Shown here: in pieces, positions 7,026 through 50,162 of the stretch
How the letters are laid out: every line of letters starts with the position of its first letter
Position numbering within the stretch: the first letter of the stretch is position 1
Assembly (NCBI GenBank): GCA_963664815.2
Contig: CAXXHB010000003.1
Span: forward strand, 1,408,001 to 1,472,000
Length of the DNA: 64,000 nt
DNA from: Spirochaetota bacterium
GTDB taxonomy: Bacteria > Spirochaetota > UBA4802 > UBA5550
Direction: 5' to 3'
Made by a program: the position numbers and the translations under genes
Notes under the pieces: generated by a model
Database searches by the model: none
Told to the model about the DNA's origin: nothing
Seen by the model: the letters and a program-made list of their open reading frames with translations, nothing else

Positions 7026-7044
7026 AGATTCGGGTAATACCGTG

Positions 7045-31711: not shown

Positions 31712-31728
31712 TTGGCACGCAATATGCT
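31712..31728 (+). promoter_or_regulatory. sigma54 (-24/-12) promoter
   Basis: TTGGCACGCAATATGCT, with GG 31714-15 and GC 31726-27 spaced by 10 nt. Confidence 0.85.
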
Positions 31729-33449: not shown

Positions 33450-33788
33450 ATGAAAAAAATTGAAGCAATTATAAGACCTGAAAAACTCGATGCAGTTCTT
33501 GATGAACTTGAAAATGTAGGTTATTCGGGATTGATGATCACCGAAATTAAGGGTCATGGAAAGCAAAAGGGAGTTGTGCAGCAGTGGCGTGGAGAAAGTT
33601 ATAAAGTAAAACTGATCTACAAGGTTAAAATTGAAATAATCGCAAAAGACAATGAAGTTGCGAATATAAAGGATACAATTATTAAAGCAGCAAAAACAGG
33701 TGAGATGGGAGACGGCAAGATTTTTATTTATTCAATTGAGGAAGCTGTTAAAATCAGGACAGGTGAAACAGGAGACAATACTCTCTGA
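33450..33788 (+). CDS. glnK: PII nitrogen regulatory protein
   Basis: MKKIEAIIRP, GHGKQKG, Tyr51 and TGEMGDGKIF motifs; linked to amtB. Confidence 0.93.
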   Translation: MKKIEAIIRPEKLDAVLDELENVGYSGLMITEIKGHGKQKGVVQQWRGESYKVKLIYKVKIEIIAKDNEVANIKDTIIKAAKTGEMGDGKIFIYSIEEAVKIRTGETGDNTL

Positions 33789-34021: not shown

Positions 34022-35554
34022 ATGGATCTGATAAACGACAGACAGAGTGGTTTGCTGGAAAAAATTGGAAGAATTTTTATCGAGGATAACGGCGATATTA
34101 AAATACTTATGTCCAATGTGTTTAAACTCATTGTAACCTATTACAATATTGAACGCGGAATGATAAGCATATATCACAAGGAGGAGGGTGAGATATGTGT
34201 TGATATATATCATGGATACACTGAGGAAGAGGTTGCAAGGGGGGTATACAGACCGGGAGAGGGAATAATCGGTACTGTTATTAAAACCGGAAATCCTTAT
34301 ATTGTAATGGATATAATGAATGAACCGAAGTTTCTTAACAGGACAGGTGCTGACAGAAATACAACAGCTAACAAGATTTCATTTATTTGTGTCCCTATTA
34401 AACTGAATTCAGCGGTTATTGGTACAATTTCTGTTGATATTATTAATAATTTCGGAAGAGATCTCGCCGAAGAATACCATGCCCTTACTACTGTATCTAT
34501 TATGATTGCACAGGCGGTTAACGGCAGAATTGAATCAGTTTTAAGAGAGAAAATGCTTAAAGATGAGAATGAACTTCTCCGTAAAAAAATATCGATCAAT
34601 AGTGTCCAGGGGAAACTGTTGGGAACCTCCAGTGAGATGAAAGAAGTATATGAAAAAATCATTATGGTATCGGGGACTGACACAACTGTGCTCATTACGG
34701 GTGAGAGCGGGACAGGGAAGGAGCTTATTGCTGATGCCATACAAAGAAATAGTAAGCGATACGGTGGTCCGTTTGTAAAAGTAAATGTTGCATCATTGCC
34801 GAAGAATCTTATTGAGACTGAACTTTTCGGTTATGAAAAGGGGGCATTTACAGGTGCTGATAAGATGAAAAAGGGGAGATTTGAGCTGGCCCATGGGGGG
34901 ACGATTTTCCTTGATGAGATAGGTGACCTGGATATTTCTTTACAGGTTCATCTTTTAAGGGTTTTACAGGAAAAAAGTATCGATAGAGTGGGGGGAAATG
35001 CGCCGGTTCCAGTTGACGTAAGGGTTATTGCCGCTACTAACCAGAACCTTGAAGAAAAGATTAAAAATAATGAGTTCAGGGAGGATCTCTATTACAGGCT
35101 CAATGTTTTTCCAATACAATCACCTAAATTGCGGGACAGAAGATCTGATATTGTTCTGCTGGCGGATCACTTTCTTGAAATTTATAATTCAAGAGCGGAA
35201 AAAAAGATAAGCAGGATAAGTACGGATACAATTGATCTTCTTGTCGCGTATCACTGGCCGGGGAACGTAAGAGAGCTGGAGAATTGTATCGAACGGGCAG
35301 TAATTCTATGCAATGAGGATGTTATAAGAAATTATCATCTTCCTCCATCTCTTCAGATATTTAACGATAAAAACGGATCAGGGACTCTTGAAGAGAGGAC
35401 TAACATGTTTGAAAAGGAACTTATTATTGATGCCTTAAAAGTATCAAATGGTAATGTTTCAAATGCATCGAAAAAACTCGGAACAACAAAAAGAATACTC
35501 GGTTATAAAATGGATAAGCTTGGAATTGACTATAAAATTTTCAGAAATCACTGA
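34022..35554 (+). CDS. NifA-like GAF-AAA+-Fis sigma54 activator
   Basis: GAF domain ([16 protein letters not shown]); [20 protein letters not shown] and WPGNVREL motifs; C-terminal HTH. Confidence 0.93.
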
Positions 35555-35977
35555 AAAATTCAAGTGATAAAATAAAGCCTTTCATTTGAGCAATCATAAA
35601 TACTGTTTAATATTCAGACTGAATTTCCTCCATATTTAATTAATATTACAAATTACTGGCATTGATATCAAGTGTTAAAATTATATCAGTTTACAAGTAT
35701 GTTAGTTGGTACAAATAAATTGTTACAAATTTGCATTTTGTTTGTTTGAATGATTTTAAATATAACATTATGGTAACATATTTGTAATAATAATCCGCCT
35801 GCAGATTTTCACTCCGATAATTGGTGTTTTGAAAATTCATAAAATACAATTACGTAACTGATTTTTAATGCAATGTTAAAATTTAACATAATTGAAATAT
35901 TGAATCATCAGTTTTCATTGATTGTATATCGGGTACGATGTTTTGTTGTAATATAATTTAATTCATGGAGCGGTGTT

Positions 35978-36424
35978 ATGAATATAACAGTCGTTAGGAC
36001 ATTGAAATTGTTTGTTATGTATTGTTCCTCCTCTTTCAGTTCTGAAGAATTGTCTGTCGCGATAAAGATGGATGAAGGTGATGAACTCAGACTGATCGGG
36101 CTTCCATGTTCAGGGAAGGTTGACCTTCTTTACCTTTTAAAAGCATTTGAGAAGGGGGCAGACGGTCTGGTAATACTCACATGCCCGAAAAATGAATGCC
36201 GTCATCTGGAGGGTAATCTCCGGGCGTTGCGAAGGGCTGACAGTGTAAGCTCAATACTCGATGAAACAGGGCTTGGTAATGACAGAATAACCGTATTACA
36301 GTTGAAAGAGGACGGAATTGACGGCATAGTGTCGGAGATTGCTGCGTTTGCAGGCAGCCTGAGGCCGTTAGCCTTTAAAAATTCCGGTTCGTCTGCAGTT
36401 GATGCAACAGCTGTTTCAAATTAG
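35978..36424 (+). CDS. Divergent MvhD/FlpD-like [2Fe-2S] protein
   Basis: LPCSGKVD...AFEKGADG...TCPKNECRHLEGN. Confidence 0.85.
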   Translation: MNITVVRTLKLFVMYCSSSFSSEELSVAIKMDEGDELRLIGLPCSGKVDLLYLLKAFEKGADGLVILTCPKNECRHLEGNLRALRRADSVSSILDETGLGNDRITVLQLKEDGIDGIVSEIAAFAGSLRPLAFKNSGSSAVDATAVSN

Positions 36425-36519
36425 GTAGTTTTTAACTGCTTGTGTGTTCTGAATCCGGGTGAGGCCCGGCTGGTATTTGCAAATATTTAGAAGATATAAA
36501 AAATTCTGGTGATTATATT

Positions 36520-37437
36520 ATGAAAAAAGAGAAAAATTTCGCGGATCAGATAAGGGACAAAGATTTTATTGTAACAGCAGAATACCTTCCGCGTGCTGAA
36601 ACAGATCCGGCGAATATTAAAACAATAATTGACTGCCTGAGAGAGGTACCATCAGCGGTAAACGTTTCGGATAACCCGTTTGGTGTGGCAATGTCAAGTT
36701 TTGCAGCATCAATTCACCTTATCAATGCAGGAATTGAACCTGTACTTCAGATCGTCACAAGAGACAGGAACAGGATTGCAATACAGTCTGATATTCTGGG
36801 AGCGTCATCTCTCGGGATAAGAAATATGCTTTGTCTTTCAGGGTATCATCAGGTGCTTACAGACAATCCTGAATCAGCAAATGTTTATGATATTGACTCA
36901 ACACAGCTCCTGGCAATTGTGGAGAATCTGAGGATGAAGGGAGAGCTTCTGAACGGCGCAAAGATAAATGGGCCGTTTAATATGACTACTGGCGCCGTTG
37001 CAAATCCTTTTATGACACCGGTTGAACTTAACGTGCTGAGAGTTTCACAAAAGGCTGAGGCCGGGGCGGTTTTTTTTCAGACCCATCCCGTTTTTGATGT
37101 TGAGAAATTCAGTTTATGGCTTACTGCAGTAAAAGAATCTGGTGTTGATGAAAAAACCGCGATACTTGCCGGTGTGCTCCCGCTTGAAAGCGTTGAAGAG
37201 GCTGAATCTTTAAGACTAAAATATACTGATTTCAATATACCTCAATCCGTTATCGATCGCCTGAAATCGGCGGGAAGCGCAGAAGCACAGAAAAAGGAAG
37301 GAATTGCAGTCTGCACGGAAATTATATCAAAGGTAAAAAATATGAGCGGCCTCAGAGGAATACATCTTCTTACGGGCGGCAAAGAAAAACTGATACCCGA
37401 GATTCTTGGAGTATCCGGTCTGTCCGGAAAAATATAG
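36520..37437 (+). CDS. metF: Methylenetetrahydrofolate reductase-like flavoprotein (MetFV type, divergent)
   Basis: VTAEYLP, AVNVSDNP, IEPVLQIVTRDRNRIAIQSDILGA and KAEAGA motifs. Confidence 0.88.
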   Translation: MKKEKNFADQIRDKDFIVTAEYLPRAETDPANIKTIIDCLREVPSAVNVSDNPFGVAMSSFAASIHLINAGIEPVLQIVTRDRNRIAIQSDILGASSLGIRNMLCLSGYHQVLTDNPESANVYDIDSTQLLAIVENLRMKGELLNGAKINGPFNMTTGAVANPFMTPVELNVLRVSQKAEAGAVFFQTHPVFDVEKFSLWLTAVKESGVDEKTAILAGVLPLESVEEAESLRLKYTDFNIPQSVIDRLKSAGSAEAQKKEGIAVCTEIISKVKNMSGLRGIHLLTGGKEKLIPEILGVSGLSGKI

Positions 37438-37457
37438 GAATGAACTGGAGATAATTT

Positions 37458-38864
37458 ATGCCGGAAAAATATCACATTGAAACAAATCCGGTCCCTCCGC
37501 GACGTCCGAGGACAGGTAAATACGGTATTATTGACTGGAGAGAAGATTGTGCAAGGTGCCATAATTGTGTAAAGAAAGCATGTGTTTATGACAGGCACAG
37601 GGATGAAATTAAATATATCAGAAATATGGATGATGTTGATGCACTTTTTTTTGACTGCATGGGATGCTTTTCCTGTGTGCAGGAGTGTACTAAAAACCTT
37701 TTAAGGCTTACCATAAACCCTGAGTATGAGAAACTAGGGAATGATTACTGGACTCCACAGATTATCCAGACTACATGGCTGCAGGCTGAAACTGCGAAGA
37801 TCCCTGTTTCGGGTGCAGGATATGGCGGAAGATTTTCCGGTTATGGTTTTGATTCCATGTGGACCGACATGTCAGAGATAGTAAGGCCAACGAGAGACGG
37901 GATTCACGGGCGTGAATATATAAGTACTTCTGCAGACATAGGCAGGAAAACATCATTTCTTGTGATGAAGGATGGAGAACTTTCAACGGATATCCCTCCA
38001 TTAATATCAACTCCAATGCCGCTGATAATTGATATGATGCCTGAAGAATATTCTCTGGAAATTCTGGAACCATTGATGATGGAAACTGCATATAGAACTG
38101 ATCTGACAGCTGTTATTGATTCAGGAAGATGGTCTTTTAAAAATAATTTCAGCGAGAAGTATCTCCCGCATGTAGCATTTTATTTCGCTGCCGGTTCGGA
38201 ACTCCTTCCTGCGGATATTATACGTAAAACAAAAATGGTGGAGATTGAAAATTCCGGCGATATTAAACGCCGGATAATGGAACTCAAAGAGATCAGTGCG
38301 GACATAGTAGTGTGTGTAAGGATTAAATTAGATGAAAACGGCATTAGCCGGGCAGTTGAACTTTCCGAGCAGGGTATTGAAGCACTGCATATTATAGCAG
38401 ATATGAACGGAAAACAGTATGGCACAGGTTCTCCGTTATTTATAAAAGATATGATACGTCAGATTCATAAATCGCTGATTGAAAGCGGCAGACGTGATGA
38501 TATTACAATAATTTCAGGTGGCGGAATAGCCCTTCCGGAACATATGGTTAAGGGAATTATATGCGGAACTGATCTTGTATCAATAGAACTTCCGCTTTTA
38601 ATTGCAATGGAATGCCATCTGTGTGGGGTTTGCACCGGAGAGAAAAAATGTCCCGCGAAAATCAGGGAAGTTGACATTGAGTATGGCGCTGGCCGGATGA
38701 CTAACCTGATTGCAGCGTGGCATGACCAGATGGTTGAACTTATGGGAGCCATGGGCATCAGAGATGCAAGACGTCTACGCGGTGATGTGGGGCGTGCCAT
38801 GTTTTTTGAACAGATGGAGGAGGAAAGCTTTGGGAGAATTTTTGGTAAACGGAAGCATGCTTGA
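37458..38864 (+). CDS. Degenerate glutamate synthase FMN-domain paralog with N-terminal ferredoxin
   Basis: CARCHNCVKKAC and CMGCFSCVQEC clusters; ISGGGIA...CHLCGVC...CP tail; MSxG and AQGAKPG motifs absent. Confidence 0.8.
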   Translation: MPEKYHIETNPVPPRRPRTGKYGIIDWREDCARCHNCVKKACVYDRHRDEIKYIRNMDDVDALFFDCMGCFSCVQECTKNLLRLTINPEYEKLGNDYWTPQIIQTTWLQAETAKIPVSGAGYGGRFSGYGFDSMWTDMSEIVRPTRDGIHGREYISTSADIGRKTSFLVMKDGELSTDIPPLISTPMPLIIDMMPEEYSLEILEPLMMETAYRTDLTAVIDSGRWSFKNNFSEKYLPHVAFYFAAGSELLPADIIRKTKMVEIENSGDIKRRIMELKEISADIVVCVRIKLDENGISRAVELSEQGIEALHIIADMNGKQYGTGSPLFIKDMIRQIHKSLIESGRRDDITIISGGGIALPEHMVKGIICGTDLVSIELPLLIAMECHLCGVCTGEKKCPAKIREVDIEYGAGRMTNLIAAWHDQMVELMGAMGIRDARRLRGDVGRAMFFEQMEEESFGRIFGKRKHA

Positions 38865-40419
38865 GAAAATAATTCCTGAAAACACGCTTAAAACCAGGAC
38901 TATACAGCATACAGAAGAGCGGGCAATAAATCCAGCTCCTCCAAGATACAGGAATGAGATGGGAAAATATATAACCCTGAGAGATGAAACAAAATGCATA
39001 TTATGCGGAAAATGTGCCGCTGTATGCCCGCAGGGAGTTCATGTATTGAAACCGGGGTACAAGTATTTTGCTGAGCCTAAAAATCACCTCTGTTTTGGTT
39101 TTAAGTGCGAAGAGAAGGGGTGTTACTGTGTTGCCGCCTGCCCGAACGGCGCATTGAAAGTCGAAGTAAATCCCATGATGAAAGTTCTGGGAGACTACAG
39201 GTGGACAGCAGAGATGATACTTGCTACATGGAAAATGGCTGAAAACGGTAAAATTCCATCTGATGATTATGGGTTGGAATATGAAACCGGAAATTCCGGT
39301 GGAGGTTTTGACCGGATAAGATTTAAATTTCCGGAAAAACCGCCGATAGCACTCAGTGCAGAAGATATTGATACTTCACTTGAACTGAACCGGAGAAATG
39401 ACGGCAGGCCAAAAATAAAAATTGATGTTCCGTGGTATGGCGGAGGTATGTCCTTTGGTTCTGTCAGCAACACTACGCAGCTTTCAAAAGCACGAGCGGC
39501 AGTTGCATGGAACACTTTTACCTGTACCGGTGAAGGCGGGTATATGGAGAGGATGAGGCCATACGATGACCATGTTATAACTCAGGTCGCAACGGGTTTA
39601 TTCGGAATCAGGGAAGAGACTATTCAAAGAGTTCCTATAGTGGAGTTTAAATATGCGCAGGGTGCCAAACCTGGACTCGGCGGTCACCTCCTGGGGGATA
39701 AAAACACCCCGGCAGTTGCTATGATGCGGGGAACGGTCGTAGGTATTCCACTTTTCTCTCCATTTCCGTTTCACAGCGTATATTCCATAGAAGATCACAT
39801 GAAACAGATTGACTGGATTAAGCATGTAAACAGGCGGGCGCTGATTTCAAGCAAGGTATCAACTCCTAATGATGTGGATATGGTTGCTGTAGGGAGTTAT
39901 TCTGCAGGCACCCATATTATACATCTTGACGGAGGGTACGGCGGAACAGGAGCAGCTCCGGAAATTGCCAAAAAGAATATAGCAATGCCGATAGAATATG
40001 CTATTCCGAAAGTTCATAATTTTCTTGTAGCGGAAGGAGCAAGGGAGGGAGTAACACTGATCGCAAGCGGAGGTATCCGTAATCCCTATGATATGGCCAA
40101 GGCAATTGCACTTGGAGCAGATGGAGTTGTTATAGGTACAATGGAGATGGTGGCGCTCGGGTGCGTAAGATGCGGAAGATGTTCCGCAGGCCGTGGTTGT
40201 CCAAGAAGCATAGCTACTACCGATAAAAAACTTGCACCCAAGATAGAACTCGAATGGGGAGCCCAGAGGCTTATTAATACTTACAATGCATGGAGAGACG
40301 AACTTATAAGAATTCTTCAGAGGCTTGGACTGGGAAGCGTAGCTGCCCTGAGGGGCAGATCAGATCTTCTCATGCATCTTGATTATACCAATGACGTGGA
40401 GTATAACCATGAAAAATGA
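38857..40419 (+). CDS. Glutamate synthase FMN/Fe-S subunit (archaeal-type GltB2) with ferredoxin
   Basis: CILCGKCAAVCP, GGMSFGS, TGEGG, QVATGLFG, EFKYAQGAKPGLGGHL, ASGGIR and CVRCGRC...CP motifs; start at ATG 38857. Confidence 0.93.
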   Translation: MLEKIIPENTLKTRTIQHTEERAINPAPPRYRNEMGKYITLRDETKCILCGKCAAVCPQGVHVLKPGYKYFAEPKNHLCFGFKCEEKGCYCVAACPNGALKVEVNPMMKVLGDYRWTAEMILATWKMAENGKIPSDDYGLEYETGNSGGGFDRIRFKFPEKPPIALSAEDIDTSLELNRRNDGRPKIKIDVPWYGGGMSFGSVSNTTQLSKARAAVAWNTFTCTGEGGYMERMRPYDDHVITQVATGLFGIREETIQRVPIVEFKYAQGAKPGLGGHLLGDKNTPAVAMMRGTVVGIPLFSPFPFHSVYSIEDHMKQIDWIKHVNRRALISSKVSTPNDVDMVAVGSYSAGTHIIHLDGGYGGTGAAPEIAKKNIAMPIEYAIPKVHNFLVAEGAREGVTLIASGGIRNPYDMAKAIALGADGVVIGTMEMVALGCVRCGRCSAGRGCPRSIATTDKKLAPKIELEWGAQRLINTYNAWRDELIRILQRLGLGSVAALRGRSDLLMHLDYTNDVEYNHEK

Positions 40420-43093
40420 CACGGTGGACAGATTAATCGAATCAAAGGGACGGCTGCTTGCAAATGTCGAATTCCCTTCTATTGTCAGAAAAGGTGAAGA
40501 AGAGGGTGGATGCGGTGTTGTAGGTTTCTGCTGCAGCGAACCCGTTGCAGGAAAACATATTTATGAACCTTCAAAGCAGATGCACAACCGGGGTAATGGC
40601 AAGGGTGGCGGTATTGCGGCTGTAGGTTTTATACCCGAACAGATGAATGTCAGCAGGGATATACTTGAAGACTGCTATATGCTGCATATAGCTTTTCTTG
40701 AAGATAATGTAAAGAGTGATGTCGAGAATGAGTTTATTAACCCGTATTTTAACGTGGCGGCTTCAGCCATGCTCGATAAGGTCGATGACTGGACAACAAT
40801 ACCGGGACTTGAAGTGAAACCTCCCGATGTCTGCAGATATTTTGTCCGCGTAAAAAATGATGTTCTTGCAGGGTTTATAGCTGAAAACAGGCTGGAAGGA
40901 ATAGACAGCAGGGAAGCAGAGGATGAGTTTCTGAACCAGAACAGTTTTAAACTGAATCAGGTATATTATGCGGCTCATGGTGATAAAAGGGCGTTTGTGC
41001 TCTCTCATGGGCGGAATATAATGATTCTTAAGGTTGTAGGTTTTGCCGAGGCGATTGTTGATTATTATAAGATAAGAGAGCTTAAGGCTCATACATGGAT
41101 TGCACATCAGCGCTTCCCTACCAAGGGACGGGTATGGCATCCTGCAGGAGCGCATCCATTCACGGGAATAAATATGGCTCTTGTACACAACGGAGACTTC
41201 GCGAATTATCATTCAGTAACAGAGCACCTTCTTCAGAGAAACATATATCCGCAGTTTCTGACTGACACTGAGGTTTCGGCCCTGTTGTTTGATCTGATGA
41301 ACAGGACATATCATTATTCACTGGAACATATTATTGAAGCGATGGCCCCTACCTCTGAGCTTGACTTTGACAGGCTGCCTGAGAATAAAAAGAAATTATA
41401 CAGGGCAATACAGGCAACGCATATACACGGTTCGCCCGATGGTCCGTGGTTCTTCATTATTACGAGAAATGTCCCTGAAAAGAAACAGTTTCAGCTTCTT
41501 GGGATTACTGATACTGCTATGCTTCGTCCGCAGGTTTTTGCATTCTGTGACGGTGAGGTTCAGGTTGGACTGATAGCTTCAGAAAAACAGGCAATCGATG
41601 CAACTCTTGTAAGTCTGTCGAAAGATGATCCCAGGATCTGTCCTGTTGCAGAAAAGTACTGGAATGCACGCGGTGGAAGCCATACAGACGGTGGCGCTTT
41701 TATTTTTAATATTTCTGAAGTATCTGGTAAGATGAGAATTGAATGCACAGATAAATTTGGTAAACCGGTTTCACTTCCCGGGAACGGGGAGGTATGTGAT
41801 TTTATATCTGAAAAATATCTTTCACATAAGCTGAAAGACGATGTCGTGAATTATATCAGGCAGTATAACGATAATAATCCTTACGGGCTTTACAGTTATA
41901 TCCGTGATAATATACCTTTTTGGTCATATGATGATATCCGCGCGGCTCTGAGGATGATTACAGATATGGCTTCAGATAATTCAGGTATTGAGAGAGCTGT
42001 ATCGGTATTAACTTTATTAAATGATCTTAAATATCCGGTCGGAAAAAAGAAAAGAAGCAACTTAATACATCTTATAAGAATGGAACTTACGAAGATGTTT
42101 AAAAAACTGCCATATCTTGATGATAAGACTGTATCAGACGGGAACAGTTACAGGCTTATTGATCTTGATAAAAGAGATACGCTTCGCGGTCCTGAGCAGA
42201 ACGAATCTGTTCTTGTAATTAATGCATATAACTTTCCTCCTGAAGGCGTACTGAGCGATGCATCGCTGCTTATGGATGCGTATATGAAAGGATGGAAAAA
42301 GTTCATTTCATTCGGATGTACGGGACAGAGATATATAGGGAATGGTCTGGGCCCGGATACCGATGATGTGGTAATAGACGTTTATGACAGCTGCGGCGAT
42401 TATCTTGCTTCTGGAATTGACGGCCTTACAATAAAGGTTCATAATAATGCGCAGGATCAGCTGGGGCAGATAATAAAGAGAGGAAAGCTTGTAATCTACG
42501 GCGATGTAGGACAGACTTTTCTCTACGGCGCGAAGGGCGGAGACATTTACGTGATGGGTAACGCAGCAGGGCGTCCGCTGATAAATTCTGTCGGGAGGCC
42601 AAGAGTAATAATTAATGGCACATGCCTCGACTTTCTGGGTGAATCATTTATGGCTGGAGACCCTCATAAAGAAGGTGGGTTTGTCGTGCTGAATGGTACA
42701 AAGTTTGATGATGAAGGGAAGGTGCAGCTGCTCGATGAACCTTATCCCGGAAGTAATATTTTTTCTCTTGCAACAGGTGGAGCTGTATATGTCCGGGATC
42801 CGCATAAAACGCTTGTTGATCAGCAGCTTAACGGTGGTGTAATTGAATCGATAAATAAAAAAGACTGGGAACTTATTCTTCCATATCTCGAGGAGAATCA
42901 GCGTCTTTTCAATATCAGGTTAGACGAATTATTAACTGTTAACGGTGCTGTTAAAAACCCGTTAAAAGTTTATAGAAAAGTTATCCCCGCATCGGCAGCA
43001 AAGCGAGCGGATACCGATACAGATGATCTTTTTGATGATGAATTTACCGAAGAGGAAATATTTTTTAAAAAGGAGCCGGTGACTATCAGCTGA
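40409..43093 (+). CDS. Glutamate synthase GATase (GltB1) plus GXGXG (GltB3) fusion
   Basis: EEEGG-CGVVG Ntn cysteine, MHNRGNG, AHQRFPT, HPF, HNGDFANY and TDTE motifs; C-terminal GDVGQTFLYGAKGG / GNAAGR / GESFMAG beta-helix; start at ATG 40409. Confidence 0.92.
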   Translation: MKNDTVDRLIESKGRLLANVEFPSIVRKGEEEGGCGVVGFCCSEPVAGKHIYEPSKQMHNRGNGKGGGIAAVGFIPEQMNVSRDILEDCYMLHIAFLEDNVKSDVENEFINPYFNVAASAMLDKVDDWTTIPGLEVKPPDVCRYFVRVKNDVLAGFIAENRLEGIDSREAEDEFLNQNSFKLNQVYYAAHGDKRAFVLSHGRNIMILKVVGFAEAIVDYYKIRELKAHTWIAHQRFPTKGRVWHPAGAHPFTGINMALVHNGDFANYHSVTEHLLQRNIYPQFLTDTEVSALLFDLMNRTYHYSLEHIIEAMAPTSELDFDRLPENKKKLYRAIQATHIHGSPDGPWFFIITRNVPEKKQFQLLGITDTAMLRPQVFAFCDGEVQVGLIASEKQAIDATLVSLSKDDPRICPVAEKYWNARGGSHTDGGAFIFNISEVSGKMRIECTDKFGKPVSLPGNGEVCDFISEKYLSHKLKDDVVNYIRQYNDNNPYGLYSYIRDNIPFWSYDDIRAALRMITDMASDNSGIERAVSVLTLLNDLKYPVGKKKRSNLIHLIRMELTKMFKKLPYLDDKTVSDGNSYRLIDLDKRDTLRGPEQNESVLVINAYNFPPEGVLSDASLLMDAYMKGWKKFISFGCTGQRYIGNGLGPDTDDVVIDVYDSCGDYLASGIDGLTIKVHNNAQDQLGQIIKRGKLVIYGDVGQTFLYGAKGGDIYVMGNAAGRPLINSVGRPRVIINGTCLDFLGESFMAGDPHKEGGFVVLNGTKFDDEGKVQLLDEPYPGSNIFSLATGGAVYVRDPHKTLVDQQLNGGVIESINKKDWELILPYLEENQRLFNIRLDELLTVNGAVKNPLKVYRKVIPASAAKRADTDTDDLFDDEFTEEEIFFKKEPVTIS

Positions 43094-43118
43094 AAGAAAT
43101 GTCTAATGGAGTAGCTAT

Positions 43119-43682
43119 ATGACAATAATTATAAAGAGTGAAAATAAAGGGAAGAGTTTTTTCGAAAAGATAAAGACCGGGTCGGGTGTGGACATCAGTC
43201 TTTGCCTCCAGTGCAGGAGATGTTCAAATGGCTGTCCTGCAGCTGCTTTTACAGGAGCATCCCCTTCGGAAATAATAAGAAAGCTTCAGCTTGGTATGAG
43301 TAAGGAAATTCTTGATGATGATTTTATATGGGTCTGCGCTTCATGCGAAACCTGTTTTGCAAGATGCCCGATGAAGATCAATATGGCGGCAGTGATCGAT
43401 GAACTTAGAATTTCCGCCGGTGATTTAAAGTCAAAGACCCCGGCGGGGAATATGCCTATGATGAACAGGTTTCTTCTCGGTACTATGAGATCATTCGGAA
43501 GAACATATGATCTCGGAGCCATGATTCTTTACAAGGCCGGGACTTTCTCGTATTTCAGGGATGCGGGAAAATTTCCTATGATCCTTAAAAAGGGTAAAAT
43601 AGCGCTTTTTCCTTCATCAGCTGGTGATAAAAAAAGTGTAAAGAATATATTTAAAAATATTGAAAAGATGAGGAAACAGTAA
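43119..43682 (+). CDS. hdrC: Heterodisulfide reductase subunit C
   Basis: CLQCRRCSNGCP and IWVCASCETCFARCP motifs. Confidence 0.92.
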   Translation: MTIIIKSENKGKSFFEKIKTGSGVDISLCLQCRRCSNGCPAAAFTGASPSEIIRKLQLGMSKEILDDDFIWVCASCETCFARCPMKINMAAVIDELRISAGDLKSKTPAGNMPMMNRFLLGTMRSFGRTYDLGAMILYKAGTFSYFRDAGKFPMILKKGKIALFPSSAGDKKSVKNIFKNIEKMRKQ

Positions 43683-43683
43683 G

Positions 43684-44556
43684 ATGAAATACGCGTACTA
43701 TCCGGGATGTTCTGCCGAATCGACGGCACGCGATCAGTATACATCAACAATGGCTGTTGCGCGCTCTCTGGGGATTGAGCTTGTTGAACCGGAGGGATGG
43801 ACTTGTTGCGGTTCAACGCCTGCCCACCAGGTAAATCACGATCTGGCTGTTTCATTATCAGTGGCAAATCTGCAGAAGGTGCAGGATCTTGGACTCGATA
43901 TGGTGGTAAGCTGCGCATCATGTTACAGCAGGATGAAAGCTGCAAATCATGCAGTTGCTTCAGATCCGGCAGTAAGAAAACGGATTTCAGAGATTACCGG
44001 AAAAGACTATGACGGATCTGTCCGTGTGAGGCATTTTATTGAAATATTACTTGAAGACATCGGTTTGATGCAGTTTAAAAGAATGCTTACAGGCTCTCTT
44101 GACGGAATGAAGGTTGCTTCATATTATGGATGCCTGCTTGTGCGTCCCAATGAGATAACGGGTTTTGACGATCCGGAAAATCCGGTTTATATGGATAAGA
44201 TTATAAATGCCATGGGTGGAGATAGCATTGACTGGCCGCATAAAACAGAGTGCTGTGGCGCGTCACTTACCCTTACAAGACCCGGGATAGTTTTAAAACT
44301 GTCTGATTCAATTATTGCAATGGCGGAGGGATACGGGGCGGAATGCATTTCTGTTGCATGCCCGATGTGCCAGATAAACCTTGATATGAGACAGGGAGAT
44401 ATAAAAAAAGAAACAGGAAAAGACTACAGGATGCCTGTAATGTATATAACACAGCTTATCGGGCTATGTCTTGGAATTCCGGGGAATGACCTTGGAATCG
44501 GCAGGCTGATAAATTCGCCCGAAAAGATTATGACAGGAGTAGTTAATAATGCATAA
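43684..44556 (+). CDS. hdrB: Heterodisulfide reductase subunit B
   Basis: YYPGC, TCCG, CASC, YYGC, ECCG and CPMC (two CCG domains). Confidence 0.95.
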   Translation: MKYAYYPGCSAESTARDQYTSTMAVARSLGIELVEPEGWTCCGSTPAHQVNHDLAVSLSVANLQKVQDLGLDMVVSCASCYSRMKAANHAVASDPAVRKRISEITGKDYDGSVRVRHFIEILLEDIGLMQFKRMLTGSLDGMKVASYYGCLLVRPNEITGFDDPENPVYMDKIINAMGGDSIDWPHKTECCGASLTLTRPGIVLKLSDSIIAMAEGYGAECISVACPMCQINLDMRQGDIKKETGKDYRMPVMYITQLIGLCLGIPGNDLGIGRLINSPEKIMTGVVNNA

Positions 44557-47500
44557 GAGTAATAATAAAAAAACCGGAGCGGTAATTGTTCAGGGGGGCG
44601 GTATTGCAGGAGTGCAGGCATCTCTTGATCTTGCGAACTCGGGATTTAAAGTACATCTGGTTGAAAGCAGTTCAGCGATTGGCGGAATGATGGCTCATCT
44701 TGACAAAACATTCCCTACCGGTGATTGCGCAACATGTATTGTTTCTCCAAAACTGGTTGAATGTTCAAGAAACCTTAACATAGAAATACATACACTCTCC
44801 GAGCTTGAATCTCTTGAAGGGGAGGCTGGAAACTTCAAGGCAGGGATAAGAAAATCACCAAGGTATATAGACGAAAAAATCTGCAATGACTGCGGTGATT
44901 GCACAAAGGCCTGCCCCGTTGAAATCAGCGACAGGTTTAACCGGGGTCTCGGGAAAAGAAAGGCAATTCAGAAATATAACGCGCAGGCTATACCTAACAA
45001 ACCGGCAATAATGAAGCTGGGACACGCGCCGTGTAAGGTTACATGTCCTGCAAATATAAATGTTCAGGGTTATATTCAGCTTATAAAAAAGGGTGAATAT
45101 ATAAAAGCGGTGAATATGATAAGGGAAAGAAATCCCCTGTCAGCTGTATGCGGGCGTGTCTGTCCTGCGCCATGCGAGAATGCATGCACAAGATCAAAAT
45201 TTGATTCCGCTGTTGCAATAAGGCAGCTCAAGCGTTTTGCCTCTGATCAGGAGATGATGCTGGTGAAATCAGGAAAAATACAGCTTCCTGAAGAGAGAAG
45301 ACCCTCATCAAATGCGGAAAAAGTTGCTGTTATAGGTGCAGGTCCGGCAGGGCTCACATGTGCTGCCGATCTTGCAGACAGGGGGTTTGCTGTTACGGTT
45401 TTTGAAACAGGAGAGCGTGCAGGCGGGATGCTTATATGGGGCATTCCCGAATACCGGCTCCCCAGGAATATCCTTGATTATGAAGTTGAACTTATAAGGC
45501 GGAAAGGTGTTGAATTTGTTTTCAACTATCGTGCAGGAAGGGATGCGTCGATCAGTGAATTGAAAAGTAAATATGACGCTCTCTTTATAAGCGCCGGTGC
45601 GCATGGAGGGAGACGTTTAGGAGTAGAAGGTGAAGACCTTACAGGAGTTGATTCAGGAGTTGATTTTTTAAGAGAGAACGGCAAAGAAGGGGGCAGACCC
45701 CATGTAGGCGAAAATGTTGTAGTAATAGGGGGCGGTAACGTAGCGGTGGATGTAGCCCGTACGGCACTCCGTCTGGGCGCAAAAAATGTACAACTTGTTG
45801 CTCTTGAAAAATATGGGGAGATGCCGGCATATGAGGATGAAATAAAGGCTTCTGTTGAAGAAGGTATTGTCATAAAAAATGGATGGGGACCGGAGAAAAT
45901 TACAGGTAAAGGATCGGTTTCCGGTATTGAACTTAAAGAATGCGTCAGGGTCTTTGATGATAAAGGGAAATTCAGCCCGATATATAATAATGAAAATCTG
46001 ATAACATTAAAAGCTGACCAGATTATAGTTGCCATAGGGCAGATGGTTGAAAAGGATCTTCTTGAAAACAGCTGTGTAGATACGGAATTCGGATGCATAT
46101 CAGCTGACCCGGTTACACTTGAAACTACAGAAAAGGGCGTTTTTGCAGGCGGAGACAATGTATCCGGGCCTGCAAGTGTCATCGAAGCCGTTGCTGCAGG
46201 AAAAAGGGCTGCTGAATCTATAGAAAGGTTTTTAAACGGAAAAGATATGTTTACTGACCGTTTCGAATCAACGGTTAAACCGGTTCCGGAAAATATGCTT
46301 CCTTCTGCATCTGATGTAATTAAAAAAGAACGCTCTGTGGCAGATGAACTTCCGGTAAGTGAGAGAATACTGAATTTCAAGGAAGTGGAATCGGCATTTA
46401 CAGCTGAGCAGGCTGCGGCAGAGGCGGAGAGATGCCTTAACTGTGCCCTCTGTTCGGAGTGCAATGAATGTGTTTCCGCCTGTGAAAAACAGGCTGTACG
46501 GCACAATATGAAGGATGAGTACATTGAGCTTGATGCGGGATCGGTAATAATGACTGCCGGTTTTAAGGAGTTCGACGCATCAGAGAAAGGTGAGTTCGGA
46601 TATGGCAGATATAAAAATGTCGTTACGAATGTTCAGTTTGAAAGAATGCTCTCTGCGGCAGGACCATCCGGAGGGCATGTACTGAGACTTTCCGATGGGG
46701 AAGAGGCAAAGCGCATCGCCTTTATACAGTGTGTCGGTTCAAGGGATTCCAAATGCGGCAACGAATACTGCTCATCAATATGCTGCATGGCAACAACCAA
46801 GCAGGCGCTTGTTGCAGATGAACATATAGAAGGGATGAATGCGTCTATATTCTATATGGATATACGTGCTTTTGGAAAGGACTTCGACCGTTATTATGAA
46901 AGGGCAAGAAGTAAAGAAAATATAAAGTATATAAAAGGGATCCCTTCACGTACAGTGCAGGTTCCCGGATCTATGGATATACGTCTTAAATATATGGATG
47001 AGAATTTCAATTATATTGAAAGTGATTTTGACCTTGTGGTGCTTGCGGTTGGGATGGAGCCTCAGGATAAAATTGAAGAAAAGATGTCCGGAATAGGAGT
47101 TAAGCTAAACGAGTATGGATTCGCAGGGAGAAGCCGTCTCTATCCTCTTCAGACATCACGCGACGGGGTCTTCATCGCAGGGGCATTTAATGAACCGAAA
47201 GATATCCCGGAGACTGTTACGCAGGCAAGTGCGGCTGCGTCAATGGCTATGGAGATACTTAACCAGGCAAGGAATACACTCACGGCAGGAAAGAAGTACC
47301 CGGCAGAACATGATACTACGGATGAAAAACCGAGAATCGGTGTTTTTGTATGTCACTGCGGGATCAATATAGCTTCAACAGTTGATGTGGAAAAAGTGAC
47401 GGAAGCAGTAGCGGGTGAACCGGGTGTAATAGTGGCATCTCATACAATGTATACATGTTCCGATTCCAGCTTAACAAATATTAAAAAATGTATTATAGAA

Positions 47501-49036
47501 AACAGGCTCAACAGGGTTGTTGTGGCCTCATGTACACCAAGAACGCATGAAGACCTTTTCAGGGATACTCTCCGTGAGGCCGGACTTAACCAGTACCTTT
47601 TTGAACTGGCCAATATACGGGACCAATGTTCATGGGTTCACAGCGGAGAACCTGAACCGGCAACTGAAAAGGCTGTTCAGCTTGTAAAGATGTCAATAGC
47701 ACGTTCGAGAATGCTGAAACCACTGACAGGCGAATCATTACTGATAAACCAGAACGGACTTGTAATAGGGGGTGGACTGAGCGGGATGACTGCAGCTCTG
47801 TCGCTTGCGGAGCAGGGATTTAAAGTTACGCTTGTTGAGAAGTCAGAGGTACTGGGGGGAAATATGCTGAATATTTACAGTACTCTTGAGAATGAAGATA
47901 TAGGCGGTTTTCTGGGTGAAATGGTTTCAAAAGTTGGAAATCATAAAAACATTCAGCTTTACCTGAACAGCGAGGTGGTTAAATTAAATGGCCATATCGG
48001 AAAATTTACTGTTACCATAAGTCAGAAGGGAGTAACTAACGGTAAAGGTATTGATATCAACTGCGGTGCGATTGTTGTCGCCACTGGGGGTAAACCTGCA
48101 GAAGTAAAGGATTTCTCTTATGGAAAATCAGAGAATATATTAACACAGCTAGATCTGGAGAAAATGATTCATGAAAACAGTTTTTCATCTTTAAATTCTT
48201 CTGGCAGCAGCAAAAATATTGTAATGATTCAATGTGCGGGCTCACGCAACAATGAAAGGGAATACTGCAGCAGGATATGCTGCTCCATGGCAGTGAAAAA
48301 TGCTCTGAAAATAAAAAAAGGGAATCCTGATGTGAATGTTTATATTTTGTATCGTGATATAAGGACATATGGCTTCAGGGAAAAATATTATCTTGAGGCA
48401 AGGAAGTCGGGTGTAGTTTTTATAAGGTATGATGAAAAGAATCCTCCGGTAGTGTCGGAAGATGAAAAACTTTTTGTAACGCTTAAAAGCCCCGATATTC
48501 GCGATGTCGTTATGATTGAAGCTGATAATCTGATACTGAGTACCGGGATAGATGCACATGCTGAGAACAGGGCGGTTTCTGACATGCTTAAGCTTCAACT
48601 CAACCAGGATGGTTTTTTTCTTGAGGCACACGTTAAACTGCGACCTGTAGACTTTGCGACAGAGGGGATATATCTCTGCGGTCTTGCTCATTCACCGAAA
48701 ATGATTGATGAGAACATATCGCAGGCAAAGGCAGCAGCATCACGCGCTGCGACTATTCTTTCAAAGAACAGCCTTGAAGTTGGTGCACAGGTGTCGGAGG
48801 TAGACCAGAATAAATGTATATCTTGTATGACCTGTGTTCATGCATGCCCGTATGGAGCTCCGTCGGCAAATATTGACGGTAAGGCTGAAATAGCCGCAGC
48901 AAAATGCATGGGTTGCGGCATATGTGCATCGGAATGTCCCGCAAGGGCTATACAGCTTAACCATTTTGAGACAAAACAGTTCAACATTATGCTAGAGGAT
49001 CTGATAGAAAACTATATAGCAGTACATCGTAATTAA
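44549..49036 (+). CDS. hdrA: Large HdrA (HdrL-type): HdrA with inserted GltD-like NAD(P)H domain plus a second HdrA module
   Basis: GGGIAG...LDKTFPTGDCATC; insert APCKVTCP...CGRVCPAPCE...GAGPAG...GGGNVA; IQCVGSRD..YCSSICC; second module RIGVFVCHCG...NIRDQCSWVH...QCAGSR..YCSRICC; C-terminal ferredoxin. Confidence 0.93.
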   Translation: MHKSNNKKTGAVIVQGGGIAGVQASLDLANSGFKVHLVESSSAIGGMMAHLDKTFPTGDCATCIVSPKLVECSRNLNIEIHTLSELESLEGEAGNFKAGIRKSPRYIDEKICNDCGDCTKACPVEISDRFNRGLGKRKAIQKYNAQAIPNKPAIMKLGHAPCKVTCPANINVQGYIQLIKKGEYIKAVNMIRERNPLSAVCGRVCPAPCENACTRSKFDSAVAIRQLKRFASDQEMMLVKSGKIQLPEERRPSSNAEKVAVIGAGPAGLTCAADLADRGFAVTVFETGERAGGMLIWGIPEYRLPRNILDYEVELIRRKGVEFVFNYRAGRDASISELKSKYDALFISAGAHGGRRLGVEGEDLTGVDSGVDFLRENGKEGGRPHVGENVVVIGGGNVAVDVARTALRLGAKNVQLVALEKYGEMPAYEDEIKASVEEGIVIKNGWGPEKITGKGSVSGIELKECVRVFDDKGKFSPIYNNENLITLKADQIIVAIGQMVEKDLLENSCVDTEFGCISADPVTLETTEKGVFAGGDNVSGPASVIEAVAAGKRAAESIERFLNGKDMFTDRFESTVKPVPENMLPSASDVIKKERSVADELPVSERILNFKEVESAFTAEQAAAEAERCLNCALCSECNECVSACEKQAVRHNMKDEYIELDAGSVIMTAGFKEFDASEKGEFGYGRYKNVVTNVQFERMLSAAGPSGGHVLRLSDGEEAKRIAFIQCVGSRDSKCGNEYCSSICCMATTKQALVADEHIEGMNASIFYMDIRAFGKDFDRYYERARSKENIKYIKGIPSRTVQVPGSMDIRLKYMDENFNYIESDFDLVVLAVGMEPQDKIEEKMSGIGVKLNEYGFAGRSRLYPLQTSRDGVFIAGAFNEPKDIPETVTQASAAASMAMEILNQARNTLTAGKKYPAEHDTTDEKPRIGVFVCHCGINIASTVDVEKVTEAVAGEPGVIVASHTMYTCSDSSLTNIKKCIIENRLNRVVVASCTPRTHEDLFRDTLREAGLNQYLFELANIRDQCSWVHSGEPEPATEKAVQLVKMSIARSRMLKPLTGESLLINQNGLVIGGGLSGMTAALSLAEQGFKVTLVEKSEVLGGNMLNIYSTLENEDIGGFLGEMVSKVGNHKNIQLYLNSEVVKLNGHIGKFTVTISQKGVTNGKGIDINCGAIVVATGGKPAEVKDFSYGKSENILTQLDLEKMIHENSFSSLNSSGSSKNIVMIQCAGSRNNEREYCSRICCSMAVKNALKIKKGNPDVNVYILYRDIRTYGFREKYYLEARKSGVVFIRYDEKNPPVVSEDEKLFVTLKSPDIRDVVMIEADNLILSTGIDAHAENRAVSDMLKLQLNQDGFFLEAHVKLRPVDFATEGIYLCGLAHSPKMIDENISQAKAAASRAATILSKNSLEVGAQVSEVDQNKCISCMTCVHACPYGAPSANIDGKAEIAAAKCMGCGICASECPARAIQLNHFETKQFNIMLEDLIENYIAVHRN

Positions 49037-49050
49037 ACGAGAGGAATATA

Positions 49051-49500
49051 ATGAGTGATAAAAATTTTGAACCTCTGATTATCGCTTTCTGCTGCCAGTA
49101 CTGTTCGTATTCAGCGGCAGACCTTGCGGGTTCCATGAGGCTTCAGTATCCGCCTAATGTAAGAATTGTACGAACTCCCTGTACCGGCAGGCTTGAAGTT
49201 AATTTTTTTATGAAGGCGTTTGAAAAAGGTGCTGATGGAATACTTGTAGCCGGGTGCCTTGAAGGAGGCTGCCATTTTACTGAGGGTAATTTTCTTGCGA
49301 AAGGCAGAGTGGGATATACCCGGACAATACTTCATGAAAGCGGACTTGAAGCTGAACGTATAAAAATGATAAATGTATCGGCGGCAATGGCACGGCCGTT
49401 TGTAGACCATCTGAACGATTTGATTGAAACAGTAAAAAAACTCGGGCCTAATCCTCTTTCGGGTAAGGTCAACAGTGTTAAAGAGGAGATAGAAGTATGA
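49051..49500 (+). CDS. mvhD: MvhD [2Fe-2S] subunit
   Basis: AFCCQYCSYSAADLAG, PCTGR and GADGILVAGC..GGCHF motifs. Confidence 0.95.
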   Translation: MSDKNFEPLIIAFCCQYCSYSAADLAGSMRLQYPPNVRIVRTPCTGRLEVNFFMKAFEKGADGILVAGCLEGGCHFTEGNFLAKGRVGYTRTILHESGLEAERIKMINVSAAMARPFVDHLNDLIETVKKLGPNPLSGKVNSVKEEIEV

Positions 49501-50162
49501 TAGTAGCGCAGAGAAAAAGTATTCCCGAACTCACAGAGATACTTGAGGGGCATAAAAAAATACTTGTACTGGGATGCGGTACATGCGTCACGGTTTGCCT
49601 TGCCGGTGGAGAACGTGAAGTGAGTATTATCTCTTCGGCTCTTAGAATTTCTTCCAGTCTGAAAGGGCTCGGTTTCGAGGTAGAGGAGCTTACAATAGAG
49701 AGACAGTGTGACAATATTTTTATAGAGAAGGCAGCGGAAGCGGTTTCCAGAAATGACGTTGTTCTGTCACTGGGATGCGGCGCGGGCGTACAGGCAATAG
49801 CGGAAAGGTTTGATAAGCCTGTATATGCCGGACTTGACACCGAATTTATCGGAATACTCGAGGAGAGGGCAACCTGGACTGAAAAATGTATATCATGCGG
49901 GAAATGCGTTCTGCATATGTATGGAGGAATATGCCCTGTCACAAGATGTGCAAAGCATATGTTGAACGGGCCCTGCAGCGGTTCCAGGGAAGACAGGTGC
50001 GAGGTGAGACCAGACCGCCCATGTGCATGGCAACTTATTTATCAGAGACTTAAAAAAATTGGTGAACTTGATAAACTTAAACAGATAAAAGCGCCAAAAA
50101 ACTGGAATTACAGCCTTCATGGCGGTTCCAGGGTTATTATTCGCGAGGATCACAGAATATAA
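49497..50162 (+). CDS. metV: MTHFR small Fe-S subunit
   Basis: GCGTCVTVC, CGAGVQ, CISCGKCVL..YGGICPVTRCAK.MLNGPC and CAWQLIY motifs. Confidence 0.93.
   Translation: MIVAQRKSIPELTEILEGHKKILVLGCGTCVTVCLAGGEREVSIISSALRISSSLKGLGFEVEELTIERQCDNIFIEKAAEAVSRNDVVLSLGCGAGVQAIAERFDKPVYAGLDTEFIGILEERATWTEKCISCGKCVLHMYGGICPVTRCAKHMLNGPCSGSREDRCEVRPDRPCAWQLIYQRLKKIGELDKLKQIKAPKNWNYSLHGGSRVIIREDHRI

Follow-up and report, generated by a model that had tools for sequence, protein, structure and literature searches.

A split glutamate synthase embedded in an Hdr-MvhD-MetFV-type operon of a Spirochaetota bacterium: a candidate Hdr-coupled complex

The operon and its proteins

The window analysed here is a stretch of 64,000 nucleotides from the genome of a Spirochaetota bacterium (the host; assembly GCA_963664815.2, contig CAXXHB010000003.1, positions 1,408,001 to 1,472,000). 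At 35978-50162 it carries ten + strand genes in which the subunits of a split glutamate synthase (glutamine-dependent 2-oxoglutarate amidotransferase, GOGAT) stand among those of a heterodisulfide reductase (Hdr)-type methylenetetrahydrofolate reductase (MTHFR). On balance we favour the reading that the operon encodes one nitrogen-linked, multi-subunit glutamate synthase, for which a duplicated Hdr-type MTHFR machine would have been re-aimed at GOGAT. A preliminary description made from the sequence had reported ten co-oriented, closely spaced genes with metF and metV bracketing the glt and hdr genes, and both points are borne out by the open reading frame (ORF) positions, whose coordinates stand unchanged, and by the Pfam and NCBIfam matches that back the gene names. 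The genes are tightly packed, with intergenic spacing of -11 to +25 nt throughout, the exception being 95 nt between mvhD' and metF, and the G+C content of the cluster (0.43-0.445) contrasts with that of its flanks (0.33-0.40).

35978-36424, + strand: mvhD', divergent MvhD/FlpD-like [2Fe-2S] adaptor (PF02662, E 5e-23)
36455-36469, + strand: GC-rich hairpin inside the 95-nt mvhD'-metF gap, from a terminator-like scan; its T tail is weak
36520-37437, + strand: metF-like, MTHFR-fold flavoprotein with an altered pterin site (PF02219, E 4e-30)
37458-38864, + strand: gltB2', degenerate paralog of the GOGAT flavin mononucleotide (FMN) subunit with Fe-S motifs (weak PF01645, E 2.5e-13, and Fer4)
38857-40419, + strand: gltB2, ferredoxin domain and FMN/2-oxoglutarate domain of glutamate synthase (PF01645, E 1e-85)
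40409-43093, + strand: gltB1/3 fusion, 894 aa, class II (N-terminal nucleophile, Ntn) glutaminase, variable linker and GXGXG beta-helix (PF13522, PF01493)
43119-43682, + strand: hdrC, 2x[4Fe-4S] (TIGR03290, E 9e-19, and Fer4 families)
43684-44556, + strand: hdrB, two complete CCG motifs (PF02754 twice; TIGR03288, E 1.6e-52)
44549-49036, + strand: hdrL (hdrA-L), 1495 aa, tandem pseudo-dimeric HdrA with an inserted GltD/NfnL-like NAD(P)H module
49051-49500, + strand: mvhD (PF02662, E 2e-46)
49497-50162, + strand: metV (PF12225, E 1e-35)

The catalytic parts of a GOGAT can be recognised in two of the three Glt proteins. GltB2 matches the FMN domain of the Azospirillum GltS alpha subunit (2vdc_A, E 2e-44) and keeps the motifs GGMSFGS, GEGG, QVATGxFG, QGAKPGxGG, SPxPxHxxYSIED, GGTGAAP and SGGIR, all of which are common to the canonical GltB of the host, and among NCBIfam models it has no strong match to any except gltB. 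The Fe-S motif beside its FMN site is CxxCxxCx5CP, with four cysteines, whereas Azospirillum and host GltB have Cx5Cx4CP, with three. In GltB1/3, Cys35 follows a variable leader and lies within an EGGCGVVGF stretch that is at least 98% conserved across 119 homologs and at least 90% in a wider set, and an Arg, an HNG (Asn-Gly) and a DTE (Asp) align with the glutamine-binding residues of GlmS, which we take to be R73, N98-G99 and D123 in GlmS numbering. Since Cys35 is internal by some 34 residues leader removal has to be assumed, and the glutaminase is probably activated when a leader of about this length is cleaved off to expose the cysteine. Pfam scores for the glutaminase are weak (PF13522 at E 1.8e-6, no PF00310 match), with PF01493 (GXGXG) at E 7e-14. 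The AlphaFold2 model of GltB1/3 (pLDDT 87.7, pTM 0.89) has as its top Foldseek matches 1ea0_A (E 2.8e-14, TMq 0.52), 7mfm_G, 2vdc_A, 6s6s_A and 1ofd_A, with TMq of 0.47-0.52, and over the whole chain the position of the GXGXG domain relative to the glutaminase matches that in the GltS alpha subunit; PurF and GlmS cover only the glutaminase part (TMq about 0.2). The linker of roughly 150 residues was considered as a relic of the GltS central domain, an idea that found no support and was dropped, the linker being the least conserved part of the protein and helical in the model.

GltB2' lacks the substrate and FMN motifs of GltB2 except for GGGIA..CG(A/T)D, which aligns with SGGIR..LGAD of GltB2, and has a pair of 4Fe-4S motifs at its N terminus, CxxCxxCx5CP and, at residues 135-155, an invariant stretch peculiar to it; a sequence search of the PDB with GltB2' returned nothing at E <=0.01. 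We read it as a putative non-catalytic Fe-S subunit, because it is present with the core in all three gene architectures described below. With the glutaminase residues, the FMN and 2-oxoglutarate motifs and the GltS alpha fold in place, the sequence and fold marks of a GOGAT are present save for the fourth cysteine in the cluster motif of GltB2, and the glt part is, as the preliminary description had it, very probably a real glutamate synthase.

On the Hdr side, HdrB has two full CCG motifs, HdrC two 4Fe-4S motifs and the HdrA-type protein its flavin adenine dinucleotide (FAD) and Fe-S sites, and in MvhD' the cysteines C16, C44, C69 and C74 are invariant in 20 of 20 orthologs. HdrL maps onto HdrA (5odc_A) in four pieces, residues 11-155, 633-851, 926-1099 and 1344-1485 corresponding to HdrA 145-289, 291-510, 2-175 and 505-649. 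The first two pieces form one thioredoxin-reductase-like flavin unit that is interrupted by an insert, and the last two comprise the N-terminal cluster domain, the second flavin site and the C-terminal ferredoxin domain. The insert (160-641) matches Nfn-type chains (E 1e-75 to 1e-98) better than GltD (E 1e-54); its 4Fe-4S motifs are retained, as are an FAD site (GAGPAG) and a dinucleotide site (GGGNVA), and over the whole protein the FAD/NAD(P)H glycine motifs lie at 16, 263, 394 and 1074. Entry of NAD(P)H at the large HdrA, as proposed earlier, is therefore plausible, since HdrL carries a GltD/Nfn-like insert with these motifs intact. The earlier statement that the locus has no stand-alone gltD stands in that no free GltD accompanies a long GltB here, but has to be qualified by the GltD/NfnL-like module within HdrL. 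Four HdrL orthologs with split matches (L009, L025, L026, L031) were considered for selenocysteine and rejected, the breaks being frame changes with no in-frame TGA.

Conservation of the unit, sister architectures and the MetF-like subunit

The gene-neighbourhood comparison that the preliminary description had called for shows the ten genes to be one conserved unit. Relatives were gathered by a scan of one genome per species with the GltB1/3 fusion, which yielded 31 loci at 61-86% identity whose gene content was read by tblastn with the window proteins. One circular gene order fits all 31 of them: 13 have all ten genes in the order of the window, five show the circular permutation gltB1/3-hdrC-hdrB-hdrL-mvhD-metV-mvhD'-metF-gltB2' (in G008 gltB2 comes next, beyond the locus end) and the remaining 13 are interrupted by contig ends, with every gene present in order. 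Such conservation of order is far beyond chance. The carriers are labelled as Syntrophaceae/Syntrophales, Leptospirales/Spirochaetota, Phycisphaerales (Planctomycetota), Desulfobacteraceae (Desulfobacterota) and others, with at least four phylum labels. The host genome is 96% complete and the other carriers are mostly metagenome-assembled genomes (MAGs), so that gene absences given below are provisional. Distribution of the GltB1/3 protein is patchy: it was found in 9 genomes, from two families only, out of 301 sampled in the host's phylum, and in 25 of 151 genomes in the order of G003. Taken more widely the GltB1/3 family has many members: of 8,000 candidates scored, 7,676 reach E <=1e-5, and 1,377 representatives reach E <=1e-3, and the named matches among those listed all come from MAGs.

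A sister group found in the order of G003, at 55-58% identity, shares with the form seen in the window (type C, with L055 as one further case in that sample) the three-gene core gltB2'-gltB2-gltB1/3 and differs in the partner module. In type A, at ten loci (L043, L044, L046-L051, L053, L054), the core follows a 614-617-aa GlcD/GlcF-like protein with FAD_binding_4, FAD-oxidase_C and 4Fe-4S dicluster domains in a four-gene operon, which is possibly a 2-hydroxyacid-driven GOGAT; two of the ten lie on contigs of 3.25 and 4.02 Mb. In type B, at two loci (L045, L052), the core comes after mvhD-metV-metF, and both hdr genes and an NAD(P)H module are absent. Representative operons are the following.

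L043, 9552-17025, - strand: type-A operon
L044, 4952-12418, + strand: type-A operon
L045, 9599-19824, - strand: type-B operon, with type I glnA before it and a sigma-54 activator after it
L052, 9048-16591, - strand: type-B operon

Three giant single proteins of 2,526-3,152 aa (P0148, P0164, P0196), in which FAD_binding_4, FAD-oxidase_C, in some cases Fer4, Glu_synthase and GXGXG domains are fused, serve as a predicted 'Rosetta stone' for the partnership of the GlcD-like protein with GOGAT in type A. Taken with the operons, the gene content indicates a GOGAT core that would plug into interchangeable redox modules, one of which is a complete Hdr-type machine. In trees from quick searches with midpoint rooting, GltB1/3 (32 rows) of type C forms one clade and that of type A another (SH-aLRT 100 for each), with the two type-B rows as long branches between them; the permuted loci make up one subclade and the Spirochaetota rows are nested among Syntrophales rows. 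This nesting and the contrast in G+C between cluster and flanks fit lateral spread of the whole cluster.

These comparisons bear on the simplest alternative, namely that a ferredoxin-dependent split GOGAT and an independent Hdr-MvhD-MetFV oxidoreductase merely share an operon and its regulation. Since the core is found without Hdr genes at 12 loci it can work with other partners, and GltB2 has a ferredoxin-like domain of its own. Yet at all 31 loci, and in both gene orders, the met-type and mvh-type genes are interleaved with the glt genes, the Hdr-type set behaves as one clade, and MetF, MvhD' and HdrL are dedicated paralogs distinct from those of the ordinary clusters in the same genomes. 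The host, moreover, has no HdrA-type gene outside this operon, and no MvhD gene besides the two encoded in it. We regard two separate enzymes as quite improbable.

Residues of the MetF-like subunit were compared, in E. coli numbering, between 23 type-C copies, 22 other MTHFRs and the two type-B MetFs. In a tree of these 47 MTHFR-fold proteins the type-C copies form a separate clade (stem 0.63, SH-aLRT 100), and the type-B copies fall among ordinary MetV-associated MetFs. The Asp120 equivalent is Asp in none of the 23 type-C proteins (Tyr in 19, His in 2, Phe in 2) versus 22 of 22 other MTHFRs and both type-B proteins, and at position 183 Gln is found in 9 of the 23 versus 24 of 24 others; the Glu28 equivalent is kept in all type-C copies and all controls. 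In the window protein the three positions are Tyr109, His189 and a conserved Glu. According to the parts of the literature available to us, Asp120 and Gln183 hydrogen-bond the pterin ring of MTHFR (PMC11094777, PMC11868366), the E. coli D120N variant is left with 0.3% of kcat and a Km more than 40-fold higher (PMC11094777), and Q183 variants have a Km raised more than 250-fold (PMC11094777, PMC11868366).

All three carriers in which this was looked at (G004, G008, G019) also hold ordinary hdrC-hdrB-hdrA/L-mvhD-metV-metF clusters, whose aligned MetFs keep the Asp. The cluster in G008 is a likely parent form of the type-C operon.

L077 (G008:C105), 3919-12957, - strand: ordinary hdrC-hdrB-hdrL-mvhD-metV-metF cluster; full-length HdrL 50% identical to that of the window, with an MTHFR-fold gene upstream

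From the separate MetF clade, the lost Asp and the ordinary clusters in carriers, the type-C set looks like a duplicated Hdr-type MTHFR operon that gained a second mvhD and the GOGAT core and whose MetF then drifted at the folate site. A bifurcating MTHFR to which GOGAT had simply been added, the known complex invoked at first, is less likely than an MTHFR-type machine re-aimed at GOGAT, because the pterin-binding Asp120 equivalent is lost in 23 of 23 type-C MetFs.

A rival that would leave the MetF-like subunit active is a bifunctional coupler of one-carbon (C1) and nitrogen metabolism, linking methyl-/methylene-tetrahydrofolate (THF) to GOGAT and NAD(P)(H), either with methyl-THF as a mid-potential donor whose electrons go in part to 2-iminoglutarate (downhill) and in part to NAD(P)+ (uphill) or with both substrates accepting from NAD(P)H. 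Type-B clusters, which pair a MetF with intact Glu, Asp and Gln with MvhD, MetV and the core and have neither Hdr nor an NAD(P)H module, make an electron path from MetF to GOGAT plausible, and at the same place type A has a GlcD-like dehydrogenase, typically a donor of similar potential; the retained Glu28 and the nine retained Gln183 equivalents point the same way, as does acetyl-CoA synthase in 13 of 20 carriers. On the other side stand the loss of the Asp120 equivalent in every cluster MetF, given the activity left in D120N (PMC11094777, seen in part), the other MTHFRs kept in all carriers but one, and the physiological awkwardness that a stoichiometric tie of catabolic methyl flux to glutamate synthesis would bring. 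No CdhC/AcsB was found in the host or in its closest relatives G010, G011 and G013 (acetyl-CoA synthase was not found in 7 of 20 carriers), although the host has formate-THF ligase. We consider the coupler unlikely. A role of the cluster in the Wood-Ljungdahl pathway is disfavoured as well, the host being without CdhC/AcsB and the three carriers examined holding separate ordinary clusters.

Of the three MTHFR-fold genes in the host, one is the cluster copy, one is a canonical metF and one belongs to a separate metV-metF pair. This pair (G000:C3:1949909-1951689; L041 5094-7689) is 40-42% identical to the cluster's, and genes for a 4Fe-4S dicluster protein and a class III cytochrome c lie immediately before it.

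Nitrogen context and other glutamate routes

The operon was described as lying directly after amtB, glnK and a NifA-like gene, and Pfam and NCBIfam matches bear out these assignments.

31713-31728, + strand: sigma-54-type promoter-like site upstream of amtB, one mismatch to TGGCAC-N5-TTGCW; a lead only
31839-33434, + strand: amtB, ammonium transporter (PF00909, E 2e-108); homologs flank the cluster in 5 other loci
33450-33788, + strand: glnK / P-II (PF00543, E 1.5e-27); in 3 other loci
34022-35554, + strand: NifA-like GAF / sigma-54 AAA+ / helix-turn-helix (HTH) activator (Pfam; nifA TIGR01817 at 454 bits, below the 529 cut-off)
35873-35889, no strand: 17-nt palindrome with perfect 8-nt arms and a 1-nt centre, a candidate operator about 90 nt before the mvhD' start

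Genes of nitrogen assimilation recur beside the cluster in its relatives. Among 24 loci flanked on one side by 2.5 kb or more of sequence, drawn from the 31 type-C loci and the window, the recurrent neighbours are a sigma-54 activator (7), AmtB (6), a 354-aa HTH protein (5), GlnK (4) and a PAS protein (3). Homologs of the NifA-like activator flank 6 other type-C loci and also L045, L046, L047, L050, L054 and L055. An NrpR-type regulator (PF01995, E 2e-84), a family best known from nitrogen control in methanogens, stands directly upstream of the cluster in two loci.

L008, 2167-4865, + strand: NrpR-type regulator region, then a protein of 529 aa that matches Glu_synthase weakly and in part
L013, 4442-5452: NrpR-type regulator

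A 599-aa homolog of the 529-aa protein occurs at L035 2805-4604. The type-B cluster L045 is immediately preceded by type I glnA (TIGR00653 above cut-off), L005, L029, L046, L050 and L055 have glnA or glnA-like genes in their flanks, and in G008 and in G016 the sole glnA found shares the strand of gltB2 and lies some 2 kb away from it. In G005 and G017 only a few kb separate canonical gltB from the cluster, and in the closest nif-bearing relatives nifDKEN-type genes lie about 7 kb upstream of it (G010:C2:205274-210791, G011:C3:268645-274376). Supply of nitrogenase was rejected as a general role, nif genes being present in only 4 of 21 genomes; in the host genome no nitrogenase was found, despite the NifA-like gene.

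The claim that the operon is nitrogen-regulated holds in part, in that its neighbours are nitrogen-assimilation genes across phyla, but neither the window nor its three closest relatives offer a good sigma-54 promoter for it. Sigma-54 matches with up to 2 mismatches are not enriched window-wide (14 found, 28 expected). Elsewhere the operon is preceded by a perfect site at -103 in L008 and by 9/11 sites in L005 and L025, so that with sites in these loci and none in the window, L018, L019 and L022, sigma-54 control would be lineage-dependent at best. The candidate palindromic operator falls within the sole upstream block conserved with these same relatives (L018, L019, L022). No riboswitch was found before the operon in the window.

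How far carriers depend on the cluster for glutamate can be judged from their other routes. The preliminary description had asked whether carriers lack canonical gltBD, and this may hold for some of them: the host has, away from the cluster, both gltB (1524 aa) and gltD (472 aa) of the canonical kind, together with glutamate dehydrogenase (GDH), but among the other 20 carriers a long canonical GltB is found in 7 and not in 13. GDH was not found in 6 of 21 genomes. Three MAGs, G008, G016 and G019, have glutamine synthetase, but searches of them recovered neither a long GltB nor GDH, nor any further strong match to PF01645.

The neighbours and the missing routes also speak to a further alternative, in which the Glt proteins are not a glutamate synthase and instead catalyse another amide transfer or a reductive amination, such as a reaction like that of N-methylglutamate synthase with methylamine or gamma-glutamylmethylamide as substrate, which MetF would link to C1 metabolism. 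MgsABC has the same three-domain make-up, and both the weak glutaminase scores of GltB1/3 and the fourth cysteine beside the FMN site of GltB2 could be read in this sense, whereas the retention of all canonical GltB 2-oxoglutarate and FMN motifs, the strong NCBIfam match to gltB only and the three carriers without another recognisable glutamate route could not. N-methylglutamate synthase is redox-neutral, and the Fe-S domains here argue for net electron input. In the N-methylglutamate pathway the genes for MgsABC stand with gmaS and mgdABCD; the cluster adjoins glnA, amtB, glnK, NifA-like, NrpR-like and nif genes instead, and none of the 20 larger ORFs scanned at 25819-57541 (10 of the cluster and 10 flanking) has gmaS or mgd domains, a scan of the locus that was not extended to mgd genome-wide. 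The MgsABC alternative, raised at the outset, has thus gained no support and appears very improbable.

Proposed mechanism and relation to known systems

In the mechanism we propose for a re-aimed MTHFR machine, the catalytic core would be formed by the glutaminase and GXGXG domains of GltB1/3 and by GltB2, whose FMN site would reduce 2-iminoglutarate beside the four-cysteine cluster, with GltB2' as a scaffold or electron wire. The redox partner would be the paralogous Hdr-type methylene-THF reductase machine of HdrC, HdrB, HdrL, MvhD, MetV and MetF together with the second MvhD. NAD(P)H would enter at the GltD/Nfn-like insert of HdrL, and if all subunits form one complex electrons would pass from HdrL to GltB2 through Fe-S chains (MvhD', MetV, GltB2'). 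A complex prediction for MvhD', MetF and GltB2', with GltB2' as the partner, gave scores of 0.31, 0.00 and 0.00 against a mark of 0.32.

The flavins of HdrA could then split or merge electron pairs, coupling the exergonic GOGAT step to a harder second reaction such as the reduction of ferredoxin or of the substrate of HdrBC. By our estimate potentials are about -140 mV for 2-oxoglutarate + NH4+ / glutamate, -200 mV for methylene-/methyl-THF and -320 mV for NAD(P), and for glutamine-dependent 2-oxoglutarate reduction we estimate an effective E0' of about -65 mV from equilibrium data. Because the MetF-like subunit has lost the pterin-holding residue, it is most likely the site of GOGAT, and not methylene-THF, that provides the exergonic reductive arm. 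In its strongest form this would mean that the operon encodes a flavin-based bifurcating enzyme of a new class. At the HdrL flavins the GOGAT step would pull electrons from NAD(P)H onto ferredoxin, or onto the second partner of the Hdr-type MTHFR, and the enzyme would have arisen by duplication of the whole Hdr-MTHFR machine and a move of the terminal reductase site from MetF to a split GOGAT. We offer this form tentatively and hold it to be clearly less likely than a nitrogen-linked complex as such. If true, nitrogen assimilation would conserve energy, with low-potential reductant recovered per glutamate in energy-starved anaerobes, and the recovered reductant would be useful for nitrogenase where nif genes adjoin.

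Several observations weigh against a re-aimed, Hdr-coupled GOGAT. Canonical gltBD in the host and the long GltB of 7 of the 20 other carriers mean that the complex is not essential there for glutamate synthesis, and the argument from genomes in which it would be the sole GOGAT rests on MAGs and is provisional. HdrB keeps two full CCG motifs, which implies a further substrate that the proposed scheme does not explain, and with the Glu28 equivalent retained throughout and Gln in 9 of 23 copies an altered folate-linked activity of MetF may be conceivable. A convincing sigma-54 promoter before the operon is missing both in the window (none with up to 2 mismatches at 35555-35977; best 8/11 at 35771) and in L018, L019 and L022. 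The homologous complex of Moorella, finally, oxidised NADH and did not reduce methylene-THF or ferredoxin, its second partner being called unknown in the part of the source seen (PMC13040438), so that ferredoxin is not assured as the partner here.

The nearest known system is that same MetFV-HdrABC-MvhD complex of Moorella thermoacetica ('Type IV' in the part of PMC13040438 consulted), of which all six gene types, hdrC, hdrB, hdrA, mvhD, metV and metF, are present. In the present operon, by contrast, the glt and hdr genes stand between metF and metV, there are three Glt proteins and a second MvhD in addition, the Asp120 equivalent is missing from MetF, and acetyl-CoA synthase was not detected in the host. 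With split archaeal-type and ferredoxin- or F420-dependent GOGATs, the F420-dependent kind being mentioned in the portion of PMC9012536 seen, the operon shares domains on separate proteins, an N-terminal ferredoxin domain on GltB2 and intact modules. Unlike them it has GltB1 and GltB3 fused through the variable linker, an obligatory degenerate GltB2', the four-cysteine motif, and as partner an Hdr-type machine and not free ferredoxin, F420H2 or GltD. The operon would be expected to carry out the same chemistry as canonical NADPH-dependent GltBD (1ea0, 2vdc, 6s6s), which also takes NAD(P)H at a GltD-family module, but in our case this module is inside HdrL and nearer the Nfn type, the large subunit is split, and the host's gltBD is separate.

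Precedents exist for a large HdrA that contains a GltD-like NAD(P)H insert and has mvhD after it, in HdrL of Desulfobacterium autotrophicum (PMC2702500) and in archaeal HdrA of 'type II' and 'type III' (PMC12054007). Here the tandem (type II-like) and GltD-insert (type III-like) features are combined and tied to GltB-type genes, a context not mentioned in the parts of these two sources that we saw. A putative docking of the Hdr core to GOGAT would also have a structural counterpart. In the Fdh-MvhD-HdrABC-Fmd supercomplex of Methanospirillum hungatei (7bkb) the Hdr core is docked to such an enzyme with a GXGXG (FwdC-like) beta-helix; HdrL matches 7bkb_A and the GXGXG domain of GltB1/3 matches FwdC (5t5i_C). 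The attached enzyme of 7bkb takes low-potential electrons for CO2 reduction, whereas GOGAT is a high-potential acceptor. No description of gltB-type genes within an hdr-mvhD-metFV cluster was found in open full text, subscription journals and supplements being outside the search.

Four classes of GOGAT donor are recognised, NADPH, NADH, ferredoxin and F420. The donor of split GOGAT is poorly defined, and the locus with its two sister architectures indicates a family with interchangeable redox modules; the system bears equally on the roles of HdrL-type proteins in bacteria and on the second redox partner of Hdr-type MTHFR complexes. It points to an undescribed, possibly energy-saving route of nitrogen assimilation in uncultured anaerobes, and because the GltB1/3 family is abundant and its named matches listed are all MAGs, anaerobes of sediment, peat and digesters may commonly assimilate nitrogen by a system of this type.

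Outside the operon the only cis-regulatory RNA found in the window is a thiamine pyrophosphate (TPP) riboswitch at 4913-5012 on the - strand (70 bits, above the gathering score). Two long + strand ORFs at 1718-3934 (738 aa) and 7219-9969 (916 aa) have a G+C content of about 0.50 versus 0.35-0.40 around them.

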